Source of the DNA: Eubacteriales bacterium
GTDB taxonomy: Bacteria > Bacillota > Clostridia > Oscillospirales > CAG-272
DNA: 39,250 nt
Assembly (NCBI GenBank): GCA_045614485.1
Contig: JAZLCY010000005.1
Location: 1-39,250 of the forward strand
Reading direction: 5' to 3'
Positions within the stretch are counted from its first letter, which is position 1. Each line of letters starts with the position of its first letter. The notes under the pieces were generated by a model. That model searched no databases. It was not told where the DNA came from and worked only from the letters and a program-made list of their open reading frames with translations. Positions 8,766-39,250 of the stretch are shown here, piece by piece. The translations under genes and the position numbers were made by a program.

Positions 8766-9653
8766 TTACTCAACGTTCTGAACCTGCTCGCGTATCTTTT
8801 CAAGCTCGCCCTTCATATCAACTACGATACGGGCAATGCTTGCGTTATTACACTTAGAGCCGATTGTATTTGTTTCGCGGTTTAATTCCTGCATTAAGAA
8901 ATCAAGCTTTCTGCCGGAGGGTTCGGGAAGTGCTGAAATCTCGTAAAACGCATCAAAATGAGATCTGAGCCTTACAAGCTCCTCGTCAATAGCGATCTTA
9001 TCCGCCCAAACGGCGCACTCTGTGAGAAGGCGGTTTTCATCAACCGCAACAGAGTTATCACCGAGAATTGCCCTAAGCCTTGCTTCAAGCTTATCGCGAT
9101 ATCCTACAGTATCCTCGTGGGAGATCTTCTCAACCTGTGCGGCATAAGAGCGAACGAGCTCAATCTTTGCCTTGATATCCGACTCCGCTCTTGCACCCTC
9201 TGCACTTCTCATAGCGCAGTAGCCTTCAACCGCCTCAGCAAGAACAGCCTCGAAGATCTGCCACTCAGCTTCAAGATCCTCCTCAGGCTTTTCAAAGGTG
9301 AAGATATCCTTATTCTGTGCAACGCGCATAGTGGATATATCGTCCTTAAGACCGAACTCATCACGAAGCTTATACAGCGCCTCGATGTAGCTCCTTGCAA
9401 GCTCAGCATCAACAGCAACACTGCCGATACCCGAGCTATGATCGTCTACGGTTACGAACACGTCTACCTTACCGCGAGAGATCGCATTGTGCTGAATGTA
9501 GCTCTTGATCCTCTCCTCAAGAAAGGTGTATGCCCTGGGCATTTTTACCGAGCAATCAAAGAAGCGCGAATTAACGCTCTTGATCTCGATAGTGATATCC
9601 TTTTTCTCGCCCTCGTGCTTCGCCCTGCCGAAGGCTGTCATACTCTTTATCAT
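8766..9653 (-). CDS. YicC family stress-induced protein / endoribonuclease
   Basis: 295 aa. MTAFGR N-terminus and the C-terminal DUF1732-type [12 protein letters not shown] motif. Confidence 0.85.
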
Positions 9654-34597: not shown

Positions 34598-34626
34598 TTG
34601 ACAAGAGTTAAAACTTGTGATAAACT
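34598..34626 (+). promoter_or_regulatory. strong sigma-A promoter upstream of tRNA-Arg
   Basis: TTGACA (34598-34603), a 17-nt spacer, then TAAACT (34621-34626), with an extended -10 TG at 34618-34619. Confidence 0.6.
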
Positions 34627-34768
34627 GTATGAGCATTAAATCGTGCGCACAAATCACGTTTCGCCCCATTTTGTTGATTATGTGGTGATTTTCGTGTCAT
34701 AAAATTTAAATTAGTATAGTTTTGGGTATTATTTTTGTAAATTTCATATCGTTAAATAACTTTCATTT

Positions 34769-34843
34769 CTCCCTGTAGTTAAATGGATATAACGGGAACC
34801 TCCTAAGTTTCTGTTGTGAGTTCGATTCTCGCCGGGGAGGCCA
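34769..34843 (+). tRNA. tRNA-Arg (anticodon CCT), CCA encoded
   Basis: Folded by hand. Acceptor stem CTCCCTG/CGGGGAG (one G.U pair), D stem GTTA/TAAC, anticodon stem GGAAC/GTTTC, anticodon loop CTCCTAA (U33, CCT, A37). 4-nt variable loop, T stem GTGAG/CTCGC, T loop TTCGATT, discriminator G, then CCA. 75 nt. Confidence 0.9.
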
Positions 34844-34854
34844 ATTTTTTAGCG

Positions 34855-34880
34855 AGGGCGGTCTAATTTGACCGCCTTTT
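34855..34880 (+). terminator. hairpin + T-run directly after the tRNA
   Basis: GGCGGTC taattt GACCGCC (34857-34876) extended by G.U and A-U pairs, followed by TTTT. Confidence 0.6.
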
Positions 34881-34898
34881 GCACTATAAAGGAGTTAT

Positions 34899-35609
34899 AT
34901 GACGGATAAAGAAATACGTGCAAATGAGCTTGCAACTTTTTATATTGAGAAAACAAATCATCAAGATGTTCCTATTCAAATTCACTTTGTCGACAACATT
35001 AACAATTCTTGGATTTTATTTGCGTCTGATGATAATGTAATTAGACAATATCTAAATCATGATTTTTCAGAATGCAATGGGTTAACTATGCCCTACGACG
35101 GACAGACATACCACTTGCTCATACGAAACGATTACGATGACTATGAGTGTACTGTTATCCACGAATGCATGCATGCGTTTGATTATGAATATTTTAGGAT
35201 ATCATTTAACAACGGTGATTTACACATAGAAAATAACAACAGTTACTGGGGCATGGCATTGTACAGCGAATACCATGCCAGATCCATTGCACATGGGTAC
35301 TATATAAGCCAAAAAATTGAAAGCAAAGCAGATTTTGTCAAAAAAGAATTTCCGGCGATAATTGAAGAGGTTTTTGCATTGAAGAGTTCTCTTTTGAATA
35401 ATGAGATCGCATATCAATTTTTTTCGTACGAATTAATGCAGTATTTAGGCAGACTGGGTAGCTATGGTATAGATTATAATGTTATCGATGGATTCCCCAA
35501 AGAACTCCTTGCTTTATATAATTCTTTAATTTTACTCGATTCTGAATGGTCTACCGAAAATTTCTCGTTGCTGTTAAAAGCAATTAACGACTTTGCTTTA
35601 TCTGAATGA
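34899..35609 (+). CDS. hypothetical protein with HExxH zinc-metallopeptidase-like motif
   Basis: 236 aa. AAAGGAG SD 6 nt upstream. TVIHECMHAFDY contains HExxH (HECMH), and SEYHARSIAH about 30 residues later could supply a third ligand. No signal peptide or TM segment. Confidence 0.55.
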   Translation: MTDKEIRANELATFYIEKTNHQDVPIQIHFVDNINNSWILFASDDNVIRQYLNHDFSECNGLTMPYDGQTYHLLIRNDYDDYECTVIHECMHAFDYEYFRISFNNGDLHIENNNSYWGMALYSEYHARSIAHGYYISQKIESKADFVKKEFPAIIEEVFALKSSLLNNEIAYQFFSYELMQYLGRLGSYGIDYNVIDGFPKELLALYNSLILLDSEWSTENFSLLLKAINDFALSE

Positions 35610-35654
35610 TAATTGTATTTTCTGCAAGGTGGGTTTCCCACTTGTAAAACTCTC

Positions 35655-35700
35655 GGAGAGGGGTTAAATTGTCAAAGTGATGGCAATTTAATCTCTCTCC
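35655..35700 (+). other. 20-bp strand-specific RNA hairpin between islet genes 1 and 2
   Basis: GGAGAGGGGTTAAATTGTCA aagtga TGGCAATTTAATCTCTCTCC. All 20 positions pair on the plus strand if three G.U wobbles are allowed. The same positions are A/C mismatches on the minus strand. Confidence 0.55.
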
Positions 35701-35806
35701 TTATCCTGTTCCCTAAAATCATATTTTCATATGGTTCTTTGTTTTATATTTGGCAAAAAGAGATAGTTCTTATCATTTTTAACTTTTAACGTGAAAGGAT
35801 TATAAT

Positions 35807-37582
35807 ATGGCAAGCATTCCAACAAAAAAAGCTCAAGCTTCAAGTGGAACATCATTTGGAGAACAGGCAATTTACTACTACATAAAGCAATTATTCCAAG
35901 ATGCTGTAAATCGTGAAAAATACTCTTTTAATGAAAACGAAAGCATCGAATTAGATATTTATATCCCTTGTTTGCATTTTGCCATTGAATATGATGGTGC
36001 ATATTGGCATAAAGATAAAGCTGACATTGACAATCGCAAAAACGACATTCTTTCTGATGCCGGTGTTTACTTAGTTCGCGTTCGCGAATGCGGATTGGCG
36101 GACCTGGATAATAAACACGGTGATATTATTTACCGAAAAACTTCTTCAAAAGATAATGGACTTCACTTACAAGAAGTCATTAACGAAATCGTAAACATTA
36201 TCAATAATTATGTTAAGGCAAACGATTTACCTATAACGAAAGAAATCAAGGATTCGCTTGTTTCTTTCCATTTGAGCAAAGAAGAATTAATTGATAATCG
36301 CCCTAATATTTATGCCCAGTATCATACAGTTTTTCAAGAAAATAACATCGCACAAACCTGTATGATAAAATACTGGGACTATCAAAAAAATGGTAATCTT
36401 TTGCCACAAAATGTTTCTATTAATTCTCGTATTTTCGTATACCTAACATGCGCTCATGGATTATCGTTTCAAATACGTGTTAGTAATTTGTGCCTTTCCA
36501 ATAATAAAGCTCATATCAATTGCGACAAATGCTTTTTGAATTTTTGCCCTTTTGCCGAAGAAGCGGATTTTTCAATTTGTCACATTGCAAATGAATGTGA
36601 TACTTATAAAAAAGCAATCGAAGAATGTTCATATGTTCCCTCTTGGGTAAAAAACAAACACGCTTTTACCTTATCAAAGTTAAATTTTGTTCCACAAAAT
36701 TTTCCGTGTACAATTGACTTAATTGAAAACACACAAAAACAACATGATGCATATAATACTGAAATGTGGAACGAGATCTTGGCGAAATTGGAAGAAACAA
36801 ATGATATTACAAAATTAGTGATTGCTGAATGGTTGAAAGCGCTTCATCCTTCGGAGCATTTCAAATTAATACATGCAATTTGGCAACGAAATAACCAACA
36901 GTTTATAGATGTTCTTAAAGATATTTTCAACAATACAGATTCTTATTTTTTACGGTATTTTCCAATTCAAGTAACTGATTCTGTTTGTGTATGTGATATC
37001 GTGAAAATGTTTTTTGATTTCAGCCCTAAAAGGTTTAGTTATAAGCTCAAATTGTTTGATTTCCAAAATGTTATGAAAGACTTCTGCGAAGCAATTCTTG
37101 CTTTCTACAAAAACGATAGTTCCGAGCAAAAAGATGATATGGTTTTAACTTTTTGCATAACATCTGAAATCCCGACTTTGTCAAAACAGTTTTCTGGTTA
37201 TCTATATAAATTACTATGCGAACTCGAAAAAATAGTATTTTTACCGAACGCAAAAAAATGCAAAGAGTTACTTTACGCTAAAGCTGAAACTGAATTATCC
37301 ACCTTGGATAATTTTGAAAAGGAAGAACACTCTGTCTTGGAAGCACCTGTAGCTATTTCAGAAACATTCATTGGGAAGCAGGAGTCAGCACTTATAGCAT
37401 TTGAAGAATCCGAAAAGAAACGCAAACAACTCGAGAATGGGGTTGACGAAGAAACTGCCAAGGACAAGCTTAGACGCCGTTCACAAGGCTTGTGTCAGCA
37501 TTGCGGTAACAAATTTAAAAAGAAATTCTTACTGTTTGGAGAACAAATTTGCACAAAGTGTGGAAGAAAAAAGGATTATTAA
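35807..37582 (+). CDS. large multidomain protein: N-terminal PD-(D/E)xK / Vsr-DUF559-like nuclease motif, treble-clef-like Zn element, unknown domain, C-terminal CxxC...CxxC zinc ribbon
   Basis: 591 aa. AAAGGA SD. FGEQAIYYYIKQLF...ELDIYIP..HFAIEYDGAYWH...LVRVRE matches the restriction-endonuclease-like E..D...(I/V)E.DG..(W)H pattern. YWDYQKNGNLLPQNVSINSRIFVYLTCAHG...NCDKC resembles DUF4379-type zinc ribbons. The C-terminus is CQHCGNKFKKKFLLFGEQICTKCG. Confidence 0.6.
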   Translation: MASIPTKKAQASSGTSFGEQAIYYYIKQLFQDAVNREKYSFNENESIELDIYIPCLHFAIEYDGAYWHKDKADIDNRKNDILSDAGVYLVRVRECGLADLDNKHGDIIYRKTSSKDNGLHLQEVINEIVNIINNYVKANDLPITKEIKDSLVSFHLSKEELIDNRPNIYAQYHTVFQENNIAQTCMIKYWDYQKNGNLLPQNVSINSRIFVYLTCAHGLSFQIRVSNLCLSNNKAHINCDKCFLNFCPFAEEADFSICHIANECDTYKKAIEECSYVPSWVKNKHAFTLSKLNFVPQNFPCTIDLIENTQKQHDAYNTEMWNEILAKLEETNDITKLVIAEWLKALHPSEHFKLIHAIWQRNNQQFIDVLKDIFNNTDSYFLRYFPIQVTDSVCVCDIVKMFFDFSPKRFSYKLKLFDFQNVMKDFCEAILAFYKNDSSEQKDDMVLTFCITSEIPTLSKQFSGYLYKLLCELEKIVFLPNAKKCKELLYAKAETELSTLDNFEKEEHSVLEAPVAISETFIGKQESALIAFEESEKKRKQLENGVDEETAKDKLRRRSQGLCQHCGNKFKKKFLLFGEQICTKCGRKKDY

Positions 37583-37701
37583 AGCACCGTGCTAAAAGTT
37601 TAATAAAGTTATCGCAACTGCATTACAAATCTTTTTTAGGTCTTTACTTTTAAAAAAAGTAGCAATATTGATTTAGAGCGTTTTTCCAAAAGGAGTACTA
37701 T

Positions 37702-37980
37702 ATGGCTGAAACAATATTGACATTTGATCACGCTTGTGATAAAATTATTAAAACAAATTTTAGGAAGGATGGAACATACGTGATGAGTTGGTTATCAGGA
37801 GCAGGCGGACTTATTCTTATTCTCCTTATTGCTATCGCTGCAATTATCGGCGCGCTTATCGGTCTTGCAATCATTGCGGCAATCGCTGTTGCAATTATCG
37901 TAATCGTTAAGAAAAAGAAGAAGACAGCTGAAATAGAAGAGGCTGTTACCGAAGTTGTTGAAGAAACAACTGCTGTATAA
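37702..37980 (+). CDS. small membrane protein (92 aa), function unknown
   Basis: AAAGGAG SD 7 nt upstream. An uninterrupted 35-residue hydrophobic stretch GGLILILLIAIAAIIGALIGLAIIAAIAVAIIVIV is followed by KKKKK and an acidic tail. A terminator follows. Confidence 0.6.
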   Translation: MAETILTFDHACDKIIKTNFRKDGTYVMSWLSGAGGLILILLIAIAAIIGALIGLAIIAAIAVAIIVIVKKKKKTAEIEEAVTEVVEETTAV

Positions 37981-38038
37981 TTTCGTATAGCATAATAAGC
38001 CGGCAGAAAACGGTAAAACGGCAAATTTAAATAAAAAA

Positions 38039-38075
38039 CAGGATTTTCTTGCAATATAGGAAATCCTGTTTTTTA
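38039..38075 (+). terminator. intrinsic terminator closing the islet
   Basis: 11-bp stem CAGGATTTTCT / AGGAAATCCTG (38039-38049 / 38058-38068) followed by TTTTTT. Confidence 0.8.
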
Positions 38076-38191
38076 TTGTTTTGAACACAATAAGAGGAAT
38101 TTTGCGGTGCTGTTTTTAGTGTTTTTTGATGAGCAAATGTTAATAAATTGTAAATATTTATGTTGGTTGGTATATTTTTATTAAAAATATA

Positions 38192-38220
38192 TAGAAAAAG
38201 ATGCAAAAATGTGTTATAAT
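38192..38220 (+). promoter_or_regulatory. candidate ppdK promoter
   Basis: Extended -10 TGtTATAAT (38212-38220) with -35 TAGAAA (38192-38197) at 17-nt spacing. Confidence 0.5.
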
Positions 38221-38326
38221 TCCTGTTGCGGCTTACGCACGGGTGTATATTTTATATAAAAAACGCGTGAGCGGCCACATAAAATTGCTATAAAAAAATA
38301 AATTTTATATTTTGGAGGAAAACAAA

Positions 38327-39250
38327 ATGAGCAAGAAGTATTGTTATCTCTTCTCCGAGGGTAACGCAAGCATGCGTGAGATCCTTGGCGGTAAGGGAGC
38401 TAACCTCGCTGAGATGACCAACATTGGTCTTCCCGTTCCCCAGGGCTTCACTATTTCTACCGAAGCCTGCACACAGTACTATGAAGACGGCCGTCAGATC
38501 AATGCTGACATCATGGCTGAAATCATGGAGTACATTGTAAAGATGGAGGGTGTTACCGGCAAGAAGTTCGGTGACCTTGAAAATCCCCTTCTCGTTTCCG
38601 TTCGTTCCGGTGCTCGTGCATCCATGCCCGGTATGATGGATACCATCCTTAACCTTGGTCTTAACGAGGACGTTGTTGAGGTTATGGCTAAGAAGTCCGG
38701 CAATCCCCGTTGGGCTTATGACTGCTACAGAAGATTTATCCAGATGTATTCCGACGTTGTTATGGAAGTTGGTAAGAAGTACTTTGAGGAGCTTATCGAC
38801 AAGATGAAGGAAGAAAAGGGCGTTAAGCTTGACGTTGAGCTTACCGCTGATGACCTTAAGGAGCTTGCAAATCAGTTCAAGGCTGAGTACAAGGCTAAGA
38901 TCGGTCAGGACTTCCCCTCTGATCCTAAGGAACAGCTTATCGGCGCAGTTAAGGCAGTATTCCGTTCTTGGGACAACCCCAGAGCAAACGTTTACCGCCG
39001 CGATAACGACATTCCCTACTCTTGGGGTACTGCAGTAAACGTACAGGCAATGGCATTCGGTAACATGGGTGACAATTGCGGTACCGGTGTTGCATTTACC
39101 CGTGACCCTGCTACCGGTGAGAAGAAGCTCATGGGTGAGTTCCTTACCAACGCACAGGGTGAGGACGTTGTTGCAGGTGTTCGTACTCCCATGCCCATCG
39201 CAGAGATGGCTAACAAGTTCCCCGCAGCTTACGAGCAGTTCGTAGAGGTT
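38327..39250 (+). CDS. ppdK: pyruvate, phosphate dikinase, N-terminal 308 codons (runs off the right edge)
   Basis: Absent from the ORF track (no stop in the window). Translation from the ATG at 38327, behind GGAGGAAAA, gives [52 protein letters not shown]...[37 protein letters not shown], the canonical PPDK N-terminal ATP-grasp region. Confidence 0.9.

Follow-up and report, generated by a model that had tools for sequence, protein, structure and literature searches.

In Islander tRNA-targeting islands a whole tRNA gene stands at one end of the inserted DNA, and a displaced 3' fragment, starting in the anticodon loop, stands at the other; it is this regenerated gene with its displaced fragment that marks the island, and sites centred on the anticodon, the commonest crossover sublocation of tyrosine integrases, form the commonest class (PMC4383910). 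CIMEs (cis-mobilizable elements) are decayed integrative and conjugative or integrative and mobilizable elements (ICEs or IMEs) that keep attL and attR, without the genes for integration and transfer (PMC5704250). For proteins that combine CapR, DUF4379 or DUF723 repeats with an EDxHD/Vsr nuclease, a role as the homing endonucleases of group II introns in phages has been proposed (Merk et al., NAR 2025, PMC12350094). Here we describe a small islet that touches on all three. It lies between a tRNA-Arg(CCT) gene and ppdK, near the end of a stretch of 39,250 nucleotides from an Eubacteriales bacterium (JAZLCY010000005.1, positions 1 to 39,250; 'the window' below), and all its features are on the forward strand. 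A preliminary description of this DNA had listed three co-oriented low-GC open reading frames (ORFs) after the tRNA, the first with an HExxH motif, the second with a restriction-endonuclease-like N-terminus and zinc clusters, and the third hydrophobic; all of this was found (ORF1, ORF2 and ORF3 in the following). What emerges is a tRNA-targeting island in miniature, without an integrase and probably with a tRNA of its own; of its cargo, one protein belongs to an orphan family, and another shows a known family of nucleases in a new architecture.

The ends of the element are seen most clearly in related loci (numbered with the prefix L), where both the tRNA of the locus itself and the other allele of that tRNA served as queries to locate them. 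At the far end of the islet, L017 (10269-10313) and L019 (5246-5290) carry a 45-nt direct repeat of tRNA positions 31-75, and the same 3' fragment is present in L009 and L012. All four fragments begin at C32, in the anticodon loop, and three of them are preceded by one conserved right end, CACGAACACCTATRAAAA. Just beyond the repeat, L019 has the native terminator, which in the conspecific locus L001 comes immediately after the tRNA. A second type of junction is found in L012 and L017, where the 5' half of the host tRNA (positions 1-40) ends in CTCCTAAG(G) and abuts a left arm starting GTGAGTATATCC, a complete tRNA following about 150 bp further on. These junctions duplicate only the 8-9 nt core of the anticodon loop, after which comes a conserved end of about 25 nt (GTGAGTATATCC..GAAAAT) in arms that are otherwise different; the junction of L012 was seen in four contigs from different samples. 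The complete tRNA inside L012 is of an allele here called tW, while both flanking halves are of the other allele, to which the native copies in 13/13 relatives also belong. Since a host 5' half joined to a tW 3' half could form no acceptor stem, a single insertion that carried its own tRNA is the simpler reading of this arrangement. Judged by these sequences, the islet is an integrative element tied to tRNA-Arg(CCT), its relatives showing the regenerated tRNA and the displaced fragment.

In the window, the tRNA-Arg(CCT) at 34769-34843 is the sole tRNA (ARAGORN; Rfam, 54.8 bits); it is the tW allele, identical to the tRNA inside the L012 island. The DNA upstream of it (34625-34768, the left boundary being approximate) corresponds to the left arm of L012: BLAST finds 97% nucleotide identity to L012 4250-4358, starting at 34659, and alignment extends the similarity to about 34625 (window CTGTATGAGCAT, L012 GTGTGAGTATATCC). 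In L012 and L017 this arm starts immediately after the 5' half of the host tRNA and the core CTCCTAAG. The window thus shares with L012 the left arm, the tW tRNA and ORF1. At the other end, 96 bp upstream of the ATG of ppdK (start codon at 38327), positions 38219-38231 hold a 13-nt exact match, ATTCCTGTTGCGG, to positions 59-71 of the L017-type tRNA, that is, to the 3' strand of the T-arm and acceptor in the allele other than the window's own; extended to 19 nt, it spans 38213-38231, and its chance expectation in that region and on that strand is 3e-4. It aligns with the intact 45-nt fragments of L009, L012, L017 and L019, and L009, the closest relative by ppdK (88.6% amino acid identity), has its intact fragment at the same place upstream of ppdK. 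We read 38213-38231 as the decayed remnant of the displaced 3' half of the host tRNA-Arg(CCT), which makes it the right end of the island (attR). Because this remnant belongs to a different allele, the tRNA of the window was probably brought in by the island as a substitute for a disrupted host tRNA. Together, the shared left arm, the tW tRNA, the remnant and the position of the L009 fragment place the island at about 34625-38231, tRNA included.

The preliminary description had seen no direct repeat of the tRNA 3' end, which holds for the window tRNA's own sequence and fails for the other allele; its further statement that this is not a conventional integrative element is contradicted by the regenerated tRNA and displaced 45-nt fragment of the relatives and by the remnant in the window. 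More generally, a tRNA that looks like a landmark can itself be inserted DNA, and a scan for repeats of its own 3' end then misses the boundary of the island. While attR is decayed in the window, attL is not identifiable; a strong promoter-like site occurs at 34598-34626 (TTGACA, 17 nt, TG-n-TAAACT), its end coinciding with the start of the left arm, and it may have belonged to the host tRNA that was destroyed and, thus orphaned, now read into the island. A resemblance to a tRNA 5' half at 34605-34626, overlapping this site, is doubtful and is not claimed as a surviving half.

The composition of the islet is foreign to its surroundings: GC content is 0.33 over 34844-38328, against 0.47 upstream and 0.50 in ppdK, and GC content at third codon positions is 0.34 in ORF1 and 0.29 in both ORF2 and ORF3, against 0.50 and 0.57 in the flanking genes up288 and ppdK. 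The shift in codon usage and composition described earlier is therefore real, except that it does not set in exactly at the tRNA 3' end; GC content is already down to 0.28-0.31 from about 34200, upstream of the tRNA. A terminator had been placed before the recovery of composition, and a terminator-like hairpin followed by a T-run can indeed be read from the sequence at 38033-38074. The rest of the window is housekeeping DNA (purine synthesis, a GH2 enzyme, an AraC regulator, an NMN transporter, a TMEM164-family protein).

Synonymous divergence (dS) between the window and L009 is 0.087 in ORF2 and 0.93 in the adjacent ppdK. L001, L006 and L007 share, at 100% identity, a 3.25-kb stretch that starts at the tRNA and takes in the ORF2 homolog, next to three different upstream flanks; the flank of L007 is 98% identical to that of L026, from a GTDB species without the cassette, and the flanks of L026 are 66-75% identical to those of L001. 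Islet GC content stays at 0.33-0.34 in hosts of 0.38-0.47. To judge from these identities, transfer of the cassettes between species far outpaces the divergence of the flanking genes, and it is recent. The earlier view of the islet as horizontally acquired DNA tied to tRNA-Arg(CCT) is supported.

What the cassettes carry varies from locus to locus. After the tRNA, L012 has ORF1, a module consisting of an RNA-like element and a peptide ORF (the RNA/peptide module, described below), a 785-residue ORF2 homolog and a frameshifted gene of 267 codons. L016 has ORF1 and a 543-residue protein in which five CapR repeats with DUF4379/DUF723 are joined to a Vsr nuclease. L001, from the same species as L016 and with flanks 99% identical, has the RNA/peptide module, a 776-residue ORF2 homolog and the 267-residue gene, without ORF1. 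L017 has ORF1, the RNA/peptide module and the 267-residue gene, ORF2 having been lost by a microhomology deletion; the opposite reading, that L012, compared with L017, has gained ORF2 by a precise insertion of this gene alone, was rejected, since the junction truncates the peptide ORF and shows microhomology. L009 has ORF2 (96% amino acid identity), a 271-residue gene and ppdK, without ORF1. The window and L012 thus have both ORF1 and ORF2, L017 and L098 have ORF1 but no ORF2, and L001 and L009 have ORF2 but no ORF1; between ORF1, the ORF2-type nucleases and the 267-residue gene, every pairwise combination is found among the relatives. The trio of ORF1, ORF2 and ORF3 is not a conserved unit; the cargo is combinatorial and its genes are separable. 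This goes against the three-gene functional module of the preliminary description: the trio does not co-occur in other genomes, and the pair of ORF1 and ORF2 does so only in part (window, L012).

Close cassettes always follow tRNA-Arg(CCT), next to differing neighbours (up288/ppdK, RadC/up233, a 763-residue gene/CotH, EamA/GH2). One species shows three alternative cargos at the site (L001, L016 and L019, flanks 98-99% identical), and other occupants in relatives are a transmembrane HNH nuclease (twice), an XRE-transmembrane protein and a bPH protein; L088 has nothing there, RadC and the tRNA being followed by housekeeping genes. Restriction-modification, DUF2971/PDC-S31, RloB and HNH genes are neighbours of homologs or occupy the same site.

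Foreign composition, variable cargo and a site that is polymorphic between strains are all shared with Islander islands, as is, in the relatives, the whole tRNA at one end with a fragment from the anticodon loop at the other, of which the window has the 13-nt exact remnant. The differences are that no copy here has an integrase gene, that the size is only 2.3-5.2 kb, and that L012, L017 and probably the window leave the host tRNA split instead of regenerating it from an attP copy, a complete tRNA of another allele being carried about 150 bp inside. With CIMEs the islets share the flanking att sites without an integrase (attL and attR without integration or transfer genes are borne out in L012, L017 and L019), and the signs of accretion or tandem layers at one tRNA (L001, L017); they differ in showing no trace of ICE or IME backbone genes. 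That the same small set of cargo genes is near-identical between species suggests that the small form itself moves, unlike the decay products that are CIMEs.

The reading we favour, with somewhat better than even confidence, is that about 34625-38231 is a decayed mini-island without an integrase of its own, one of a family of small elements of uncultured gut Clostridia whose target is the anticodon loop of tRNA-Arg(CCT), and that it is CIME-like or a satellite, depending on a recombinase in trans. Integration would be carried out by a tyrosine-type site-specific recombinase supplied by another element; this model is proposed because the crossover core lies in the anticodon loop and because the end of about 25 nt is conserved in otherwise different left arms. 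The attP of the helper would then read CTCCTAAG flanked by GTGAGTATATCC or CACCTATRAAAA. In the lineage of the window, the insertion would have split the native tRNA upstream of ppdK, and the island's own tRNA would have replaced the lost one, making the island hard to lose; if the substitute does make the host dependent, it would be an unusual mechanism of addiction. Later decay would have erased the host 5' half together with about 320 bp of the RNA/peptide module, the 267-residue gene and most of the right arm, and the segment with ORF3 would have been put in place of the lost parts on the right side. ORF1 and ORF2 would most likely act in conflicts with phages or rival elements, a role proposed because of their domain content and neighbourhoods.

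Several points weigh against this reading. An integrase gene is present neither in the islet, in agreement with the preliminary description, nor elsewhere in the window, nor in any related islet, and IMG/VR contigs matched neither the two attP-type junction patterns nor ORF1, ORF2 or the 267-residue gene; a helper element for CIME-style mobilisation was not found, and the recombinase is thus hypothetical. At its right end the window itself contributes 13 exact nucleotides, and it has no 5' half. The split tRNA could also have arisen in two separate events, an island leaving a 5' fragment and another leaving a 3' fragment, instead of one insertion that carried a tRNA. An empty site in the same species was not seen; the genus of the window is absent from the GTDB representatives (best 49% amino acid identity), and the GTDB scan, anchored on the TMEM164-family neighbour, yielded family-level relatives. 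PADLOC has no defence model that matches ORF1, ORF2 or ORF3, and none of the three was found beside the others outside this narrow clade. A family of att-bounded cassettes of 2-5 kb, exchanged near-identically between species of uncultured gut Clostridia without an integrase, nevertheless offers a tractable case for how mini-elements move.

ORF2 (35807-37582, 591 residues) has a nuclease domain by Pfam, PHROGs, Foldseek and tblastn. Its Vsr/EDxHD-type domain (residues 14-140, nt 35846-36226) has the invariant motif D50...E61-x-D63...H68. The N-terminus gives a weak match to MTES_1575 (Vsr and restriction-endonuclease-like, a PD-(D/E)xK nuclease), the PHROG matches of the nuclease range from 1e-11 to 1e-13 and include two with the name HNH or homing endonuclease, and the fold matches AbaSI, PvuRts1I and the catalytic domain of I-Bth0305I in Foldseek (probability 0.93). 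By tblastn it is 35-42% identical to genes in 111 phage records, several of them annotated as homing endonuclease, and it is 31-32% identical to the 543-residue nuclease of L016 (BLAST E 6e-7 to 8e-8). The nuclease is followed by a single treble-clef finger, DUF4379 (residues 187-242, nt 36365-36532), above the Pfam cut-off and the sole significant match in Pfam, NCBIfam and the PDB, by a divergent Cys-rich and helical middle (residues 246-500, nt 36542-37306), and by a conserved tail (residues 546-591, nt 37442-37579) with the CxxC...CxxC of a zinc ribbon. Purifying selection is evident from a ratio of nonsynonymous to synonymous divergence (dN/dS) of 0.13-0.21.

Compared with the 776-785-residue forms (computed against P0002-P0004), identity is 89-95% in the nuclease (residues 1-180), 53-57% in the zinc finger (181-245), 33-37% in the middle (246-500) and 76-97% in the tail (546-591). 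ORF2 is thus a mosaic whose constant catalytic head and tail enclose an exchanged middle, the pattern expected of a swappable recognition module; we infer that it is a DNA endonuclease with an exchangeable zinc-finger and helical recognition part, so that these forms would make up a natural series in which a single nuclease scaffold has had its recognition module exchanged. The 776-785-residue homologs (L001 10001-12331; L012 5725-8082) duplicate the helical middle internally, which the 591-residue form of the window has in single copy; a second BLAST segment maps residues 284-591 of the window protein onto their C-terminal third.

Two described groups of nucleases come close. ORF2 shares with the CapR/EDxHD homing endonucleases the nuclease fold and the DUF4379 finger, and the 543-residue protein of L016 fits that family and occupies the same slot. 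The family has three to five N-terminal repeats and a C-terminal nuclease; ORF2 falls outside it by domain order and number of repeats, for it has an N-terminal nuclease and one finger, adds a helical region of about 250 residues and a separate C-terminal zinc ribbon, and lies outside any intron or intein. With PvuRts1I and AbaSI, restriction enzymes with a Vsr nuclease and its weak top Foldseek matches (E 0.02-0.07), it shares a Vsr-like cleavage domain at the N-terminus and a recognition domain that is separate from it; it differs in having no SRA-like domain, and the resemblance does not extend beyond the nuclease core and by itself falls short of significance. A metagenome scan with the ORF2 family gave only distant relatives that combine a nuclease with zinc fingers; among 80 such relatives of the nuclease, 77 are of the CapR/DUF4379 and EDxHD/Vsr type and none has partner genes. 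In three contigs, ORF2 homologs of 38-45% identity adjoin DUF2971 genes (PADLOC candidate PDC-S31), and in a fourth a RloB-family gene (L102 8356-9411, reverse strand; L103 6117-6926; L185 3384-4134, reverse strand; L184 2880-3566, reverse strand); this adjacency may be a recurring partnership, or simply shared residence in defence islands.

ORF1 (34899-35609, 236 residues) is an orphan zincin-like protein. H88, E89 and H92 of its HExxH motif and E124 are invariant across 49 family members; in the AlphaFold2 model (pLDDT 88.9, pTM 0.88), the motif lies in the helix 82-103 and the Glu that would provide the third ligand, 32 residues downstream, in the next long helix (116-138). In this it resembles the gluzincins (anthrax lethal factor-like, M90, M78/ImmA, SprT), from which it differs in having no partner helix-turn-helix repressor of the ImmA/IrrE kind and no fold match in the PDB by Foldseek, despite the confident model. 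Sequence searches of the PDB with single profiles and with the 49-member profile found no match, and no Pfam, NCBIfam or PDB family was significant (Peptidase_M90 reached 16.3 bits against a cut-off of 26.2); the matches to zincins are scattered and below threshold (M90, M78, SprT, DUF5700). Two predicted models of gut phages in BFVD do match, at a TM-score of about 0.55, one named 'Lethal factor' (E 9.5e-5), the other 'Peptidase' (E 2.7e-3). The family is small: of 5.8 billion clusters 13 are close, and 1.84 billion proteins contain 78 representative clusters. ORF1 evolves under purifying selection (dN/dS 0.09-0.12), which, with the value for ORF2, speaks for functional genes, and is 85-95% identical in amino acids across hosts whose neighbouring membrane proteins are 44-46% identical. 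It is predicted to be a zinc peptidase, probably expressed by read-through from the tRNA promoter, and this orphan family of 78 clusters is thereby placed in a conflict context. More distant homologs of ORF1 and ORF2 do not lie beside each other, no such pairing having been found outside the narrow clade.

An alternative that dispenses with the recombinase is homing, in which the Vsr/EDxHD or HNH nuclease would cut an unoccupied tRNA-Arg(CCT) and repair would copy the cassette from an occupied allele, with the tRNA and the 45-nt repeat as homology arms. It would account for the presence of a nuclease in nearly every variant (of the ORF2 type, the 543-residue CapR/DUF4379 and Vsr type, or the transmembrane HNH type), for the absence of an integrase everywhere, for insertion independent of the neighbouring genes and for the exchangeable recognition part of ORF2, whose nuclease domain is that of the new phage homing endonuclease gene family (PMC12350094) and matches phage genes annotated as homing endonucleases. 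However, the core duplication and the conserved end of about 25 nt in L012 and L017 resemble a recombinase site and not a product of repair, and the repeat starts exactly at the anticodon loop, the sublocation that tyrosine integrases use most. L017 moreover has both ends and no nuclease, if by a secondary deletion. Homology arms of 45 nt are also short for RecA-dependent repair, and we regard homing as unlikely. Equally doubtful is a bolder proposal, that the islets are a previously unrecognised kind of integrase-free cassette, in which a homing-type nuclease with a swappable recognition module would invade the anticodon loop of tRNA-Arg(CCT), one form destroying the host tRNA and supplying its own, so that dependence results, and in which ORF1 and the nuclease, far from being passive cargo, would be the element's machinery for mobility or competition, or a new immunity pair of zincin and Vsr nuclease.

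Less probable still is an ordinary variable hotspot between genes, without a site-specific element, which strains would fill and empty through homologous recombination with one another, the tRNA fragments being debris of local duplication. Allelic replacement between conserved flanks is indeed seen at the level of strains (L001, L016, L019), as are microhomology deletions; but the same cassettes follow the same tRNA in at least four unrelated neighbourhoods without flank homology, the fragments share the C32 boundary in four contexts, and species with 66-75% identity in their flanks have cassettes that are 100% identical.

On the right side, homology of the window to related islands stops with the conserved 3' flank of ORF2 (37583-37626), which is common to L009, L012 and, despite its loss of ORF2, L017. 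The following segment (37627-38212) matches none of the fetched loci, is unique to the window and stands where the closest relatives have the 267-residue gene. It holds ORF3 (37702-37980, 92 residues), a putative coding sequence for an orphan small membrane protein with a hydrophobic stretch of 40 residues (30-69). Neither 5.8 billion clusters nor viral contigs contain a homolog of ORF3, and PADLOC reports for it only LeoBC (E 0.0084), over the hydrophobic stretch; with PADLOC-DB 2.0 nothing was significant and ORF1 and ORF2 each had 0 matches, so that the preliminary description was right to name no defence system. That ORF1, ORF2 and ORF3 form a single defence or abortive-infection system of protease, nuclease and membrane effector is the least probable reading of all: the genes are co-oriented with short gaps, a Vsr-type nuclease follows ORF1 in three architectures (window, L012, L016) and a distant ORF1 homolog lies after a ResIII and Eco57I restriction gene, yet ORF3, without homologs, replaces the 267-residue gene of the closest relatives, ORF1 and ORF2 occur apart in the four loci named above, PADLOC matches none of the three, and the first two were originally separated by the independent RNA/peptide module with its own promoter.

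This module is found in nearly all related islets (L001 9640-9935; L009 215-560; L012 5358-5700; L017 8870-9150; L019 6480-6800, reverse strand). It comprises its own promoter, an RNA-like element of about 110 nt with a long stem, a terminator-like hairpin and an ORF for a hydrophobic peptide of 40 residues (MSNNNGMREVYQLLVNFLMLPLYLILALPAFLSFIFGKKR), and by analogy it resembles a type I toxin-antitoxin system or a small toxin under leader control. Rfam has no match for it, nor, in the islet and related loci, for any RNA family other than tRNA; the number of compensatory pairs is 0, the sequences being too alike for covariation. The window has lost the promoter, the structured RNA-like element and the 5' end of the peptide ORF to a deletion of about 320 bp, and comparison with L001, L009 and L012 shows that the last 25 nt of the peptide ORF survive at 35742-35766.

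The gene of 267-271 residues that follows ORF2 in the closest relatives (L001 12479-13282; L009 2501-3316; L017 9295-10098; L012 8238-9041, frameshifted) is 94-98% identical in amino acids across hosts, with dN/dS of 0.09-0.12. It has no match in Pfam or PADLOC; by eye, its motifs FDVLGY, YSDN and RGGITSGE recall the palm domains of class III nucleotidyl cyclases and GGDEF proteins.

Two further hairpins flank ORF1. Between the tRNA and ORF1, a GC-rich hairpin (34857-34876; GGCGGTC, 6 nt, GACCGCC) folds and is conserved in relatives: it is kept after the tRNA wherever ORF1 follows (L012, L016, L017), and also in L019; L001, without ORF1, has a different terminator in its place. Just 3' of ORF1, a long imperfect hairpin of 46 nt (35655-35700) can be read from the sequence, with similar segments in L001 and L009, and could be a terminator or a processing site.

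Some relatives show traces of more than one event at the tRNA. In L017 (7578-7729) the displaced host 5' half is itself interrupted by about 115 nt, between positions 17 and 22, which suggests more than one layer of insertion. L001 has a 19-nt copy of the tRNA 3' end (9461-9479), 140 nt downstream of the tRNA and native terminator and ahead of the cassette with the ORF2 homolog; it looks like the remnant of an older, outer layer of integration. Finally, the right arm beyond the 267-residue gene (L017 10100-10140; L009 3318-3350; L012 9042-9075) and the left arm of L017 (7820-7850) contain short repeats with the pattern TTGT(A/C)CACCC, which are possibly sites in the element where a protein binds.

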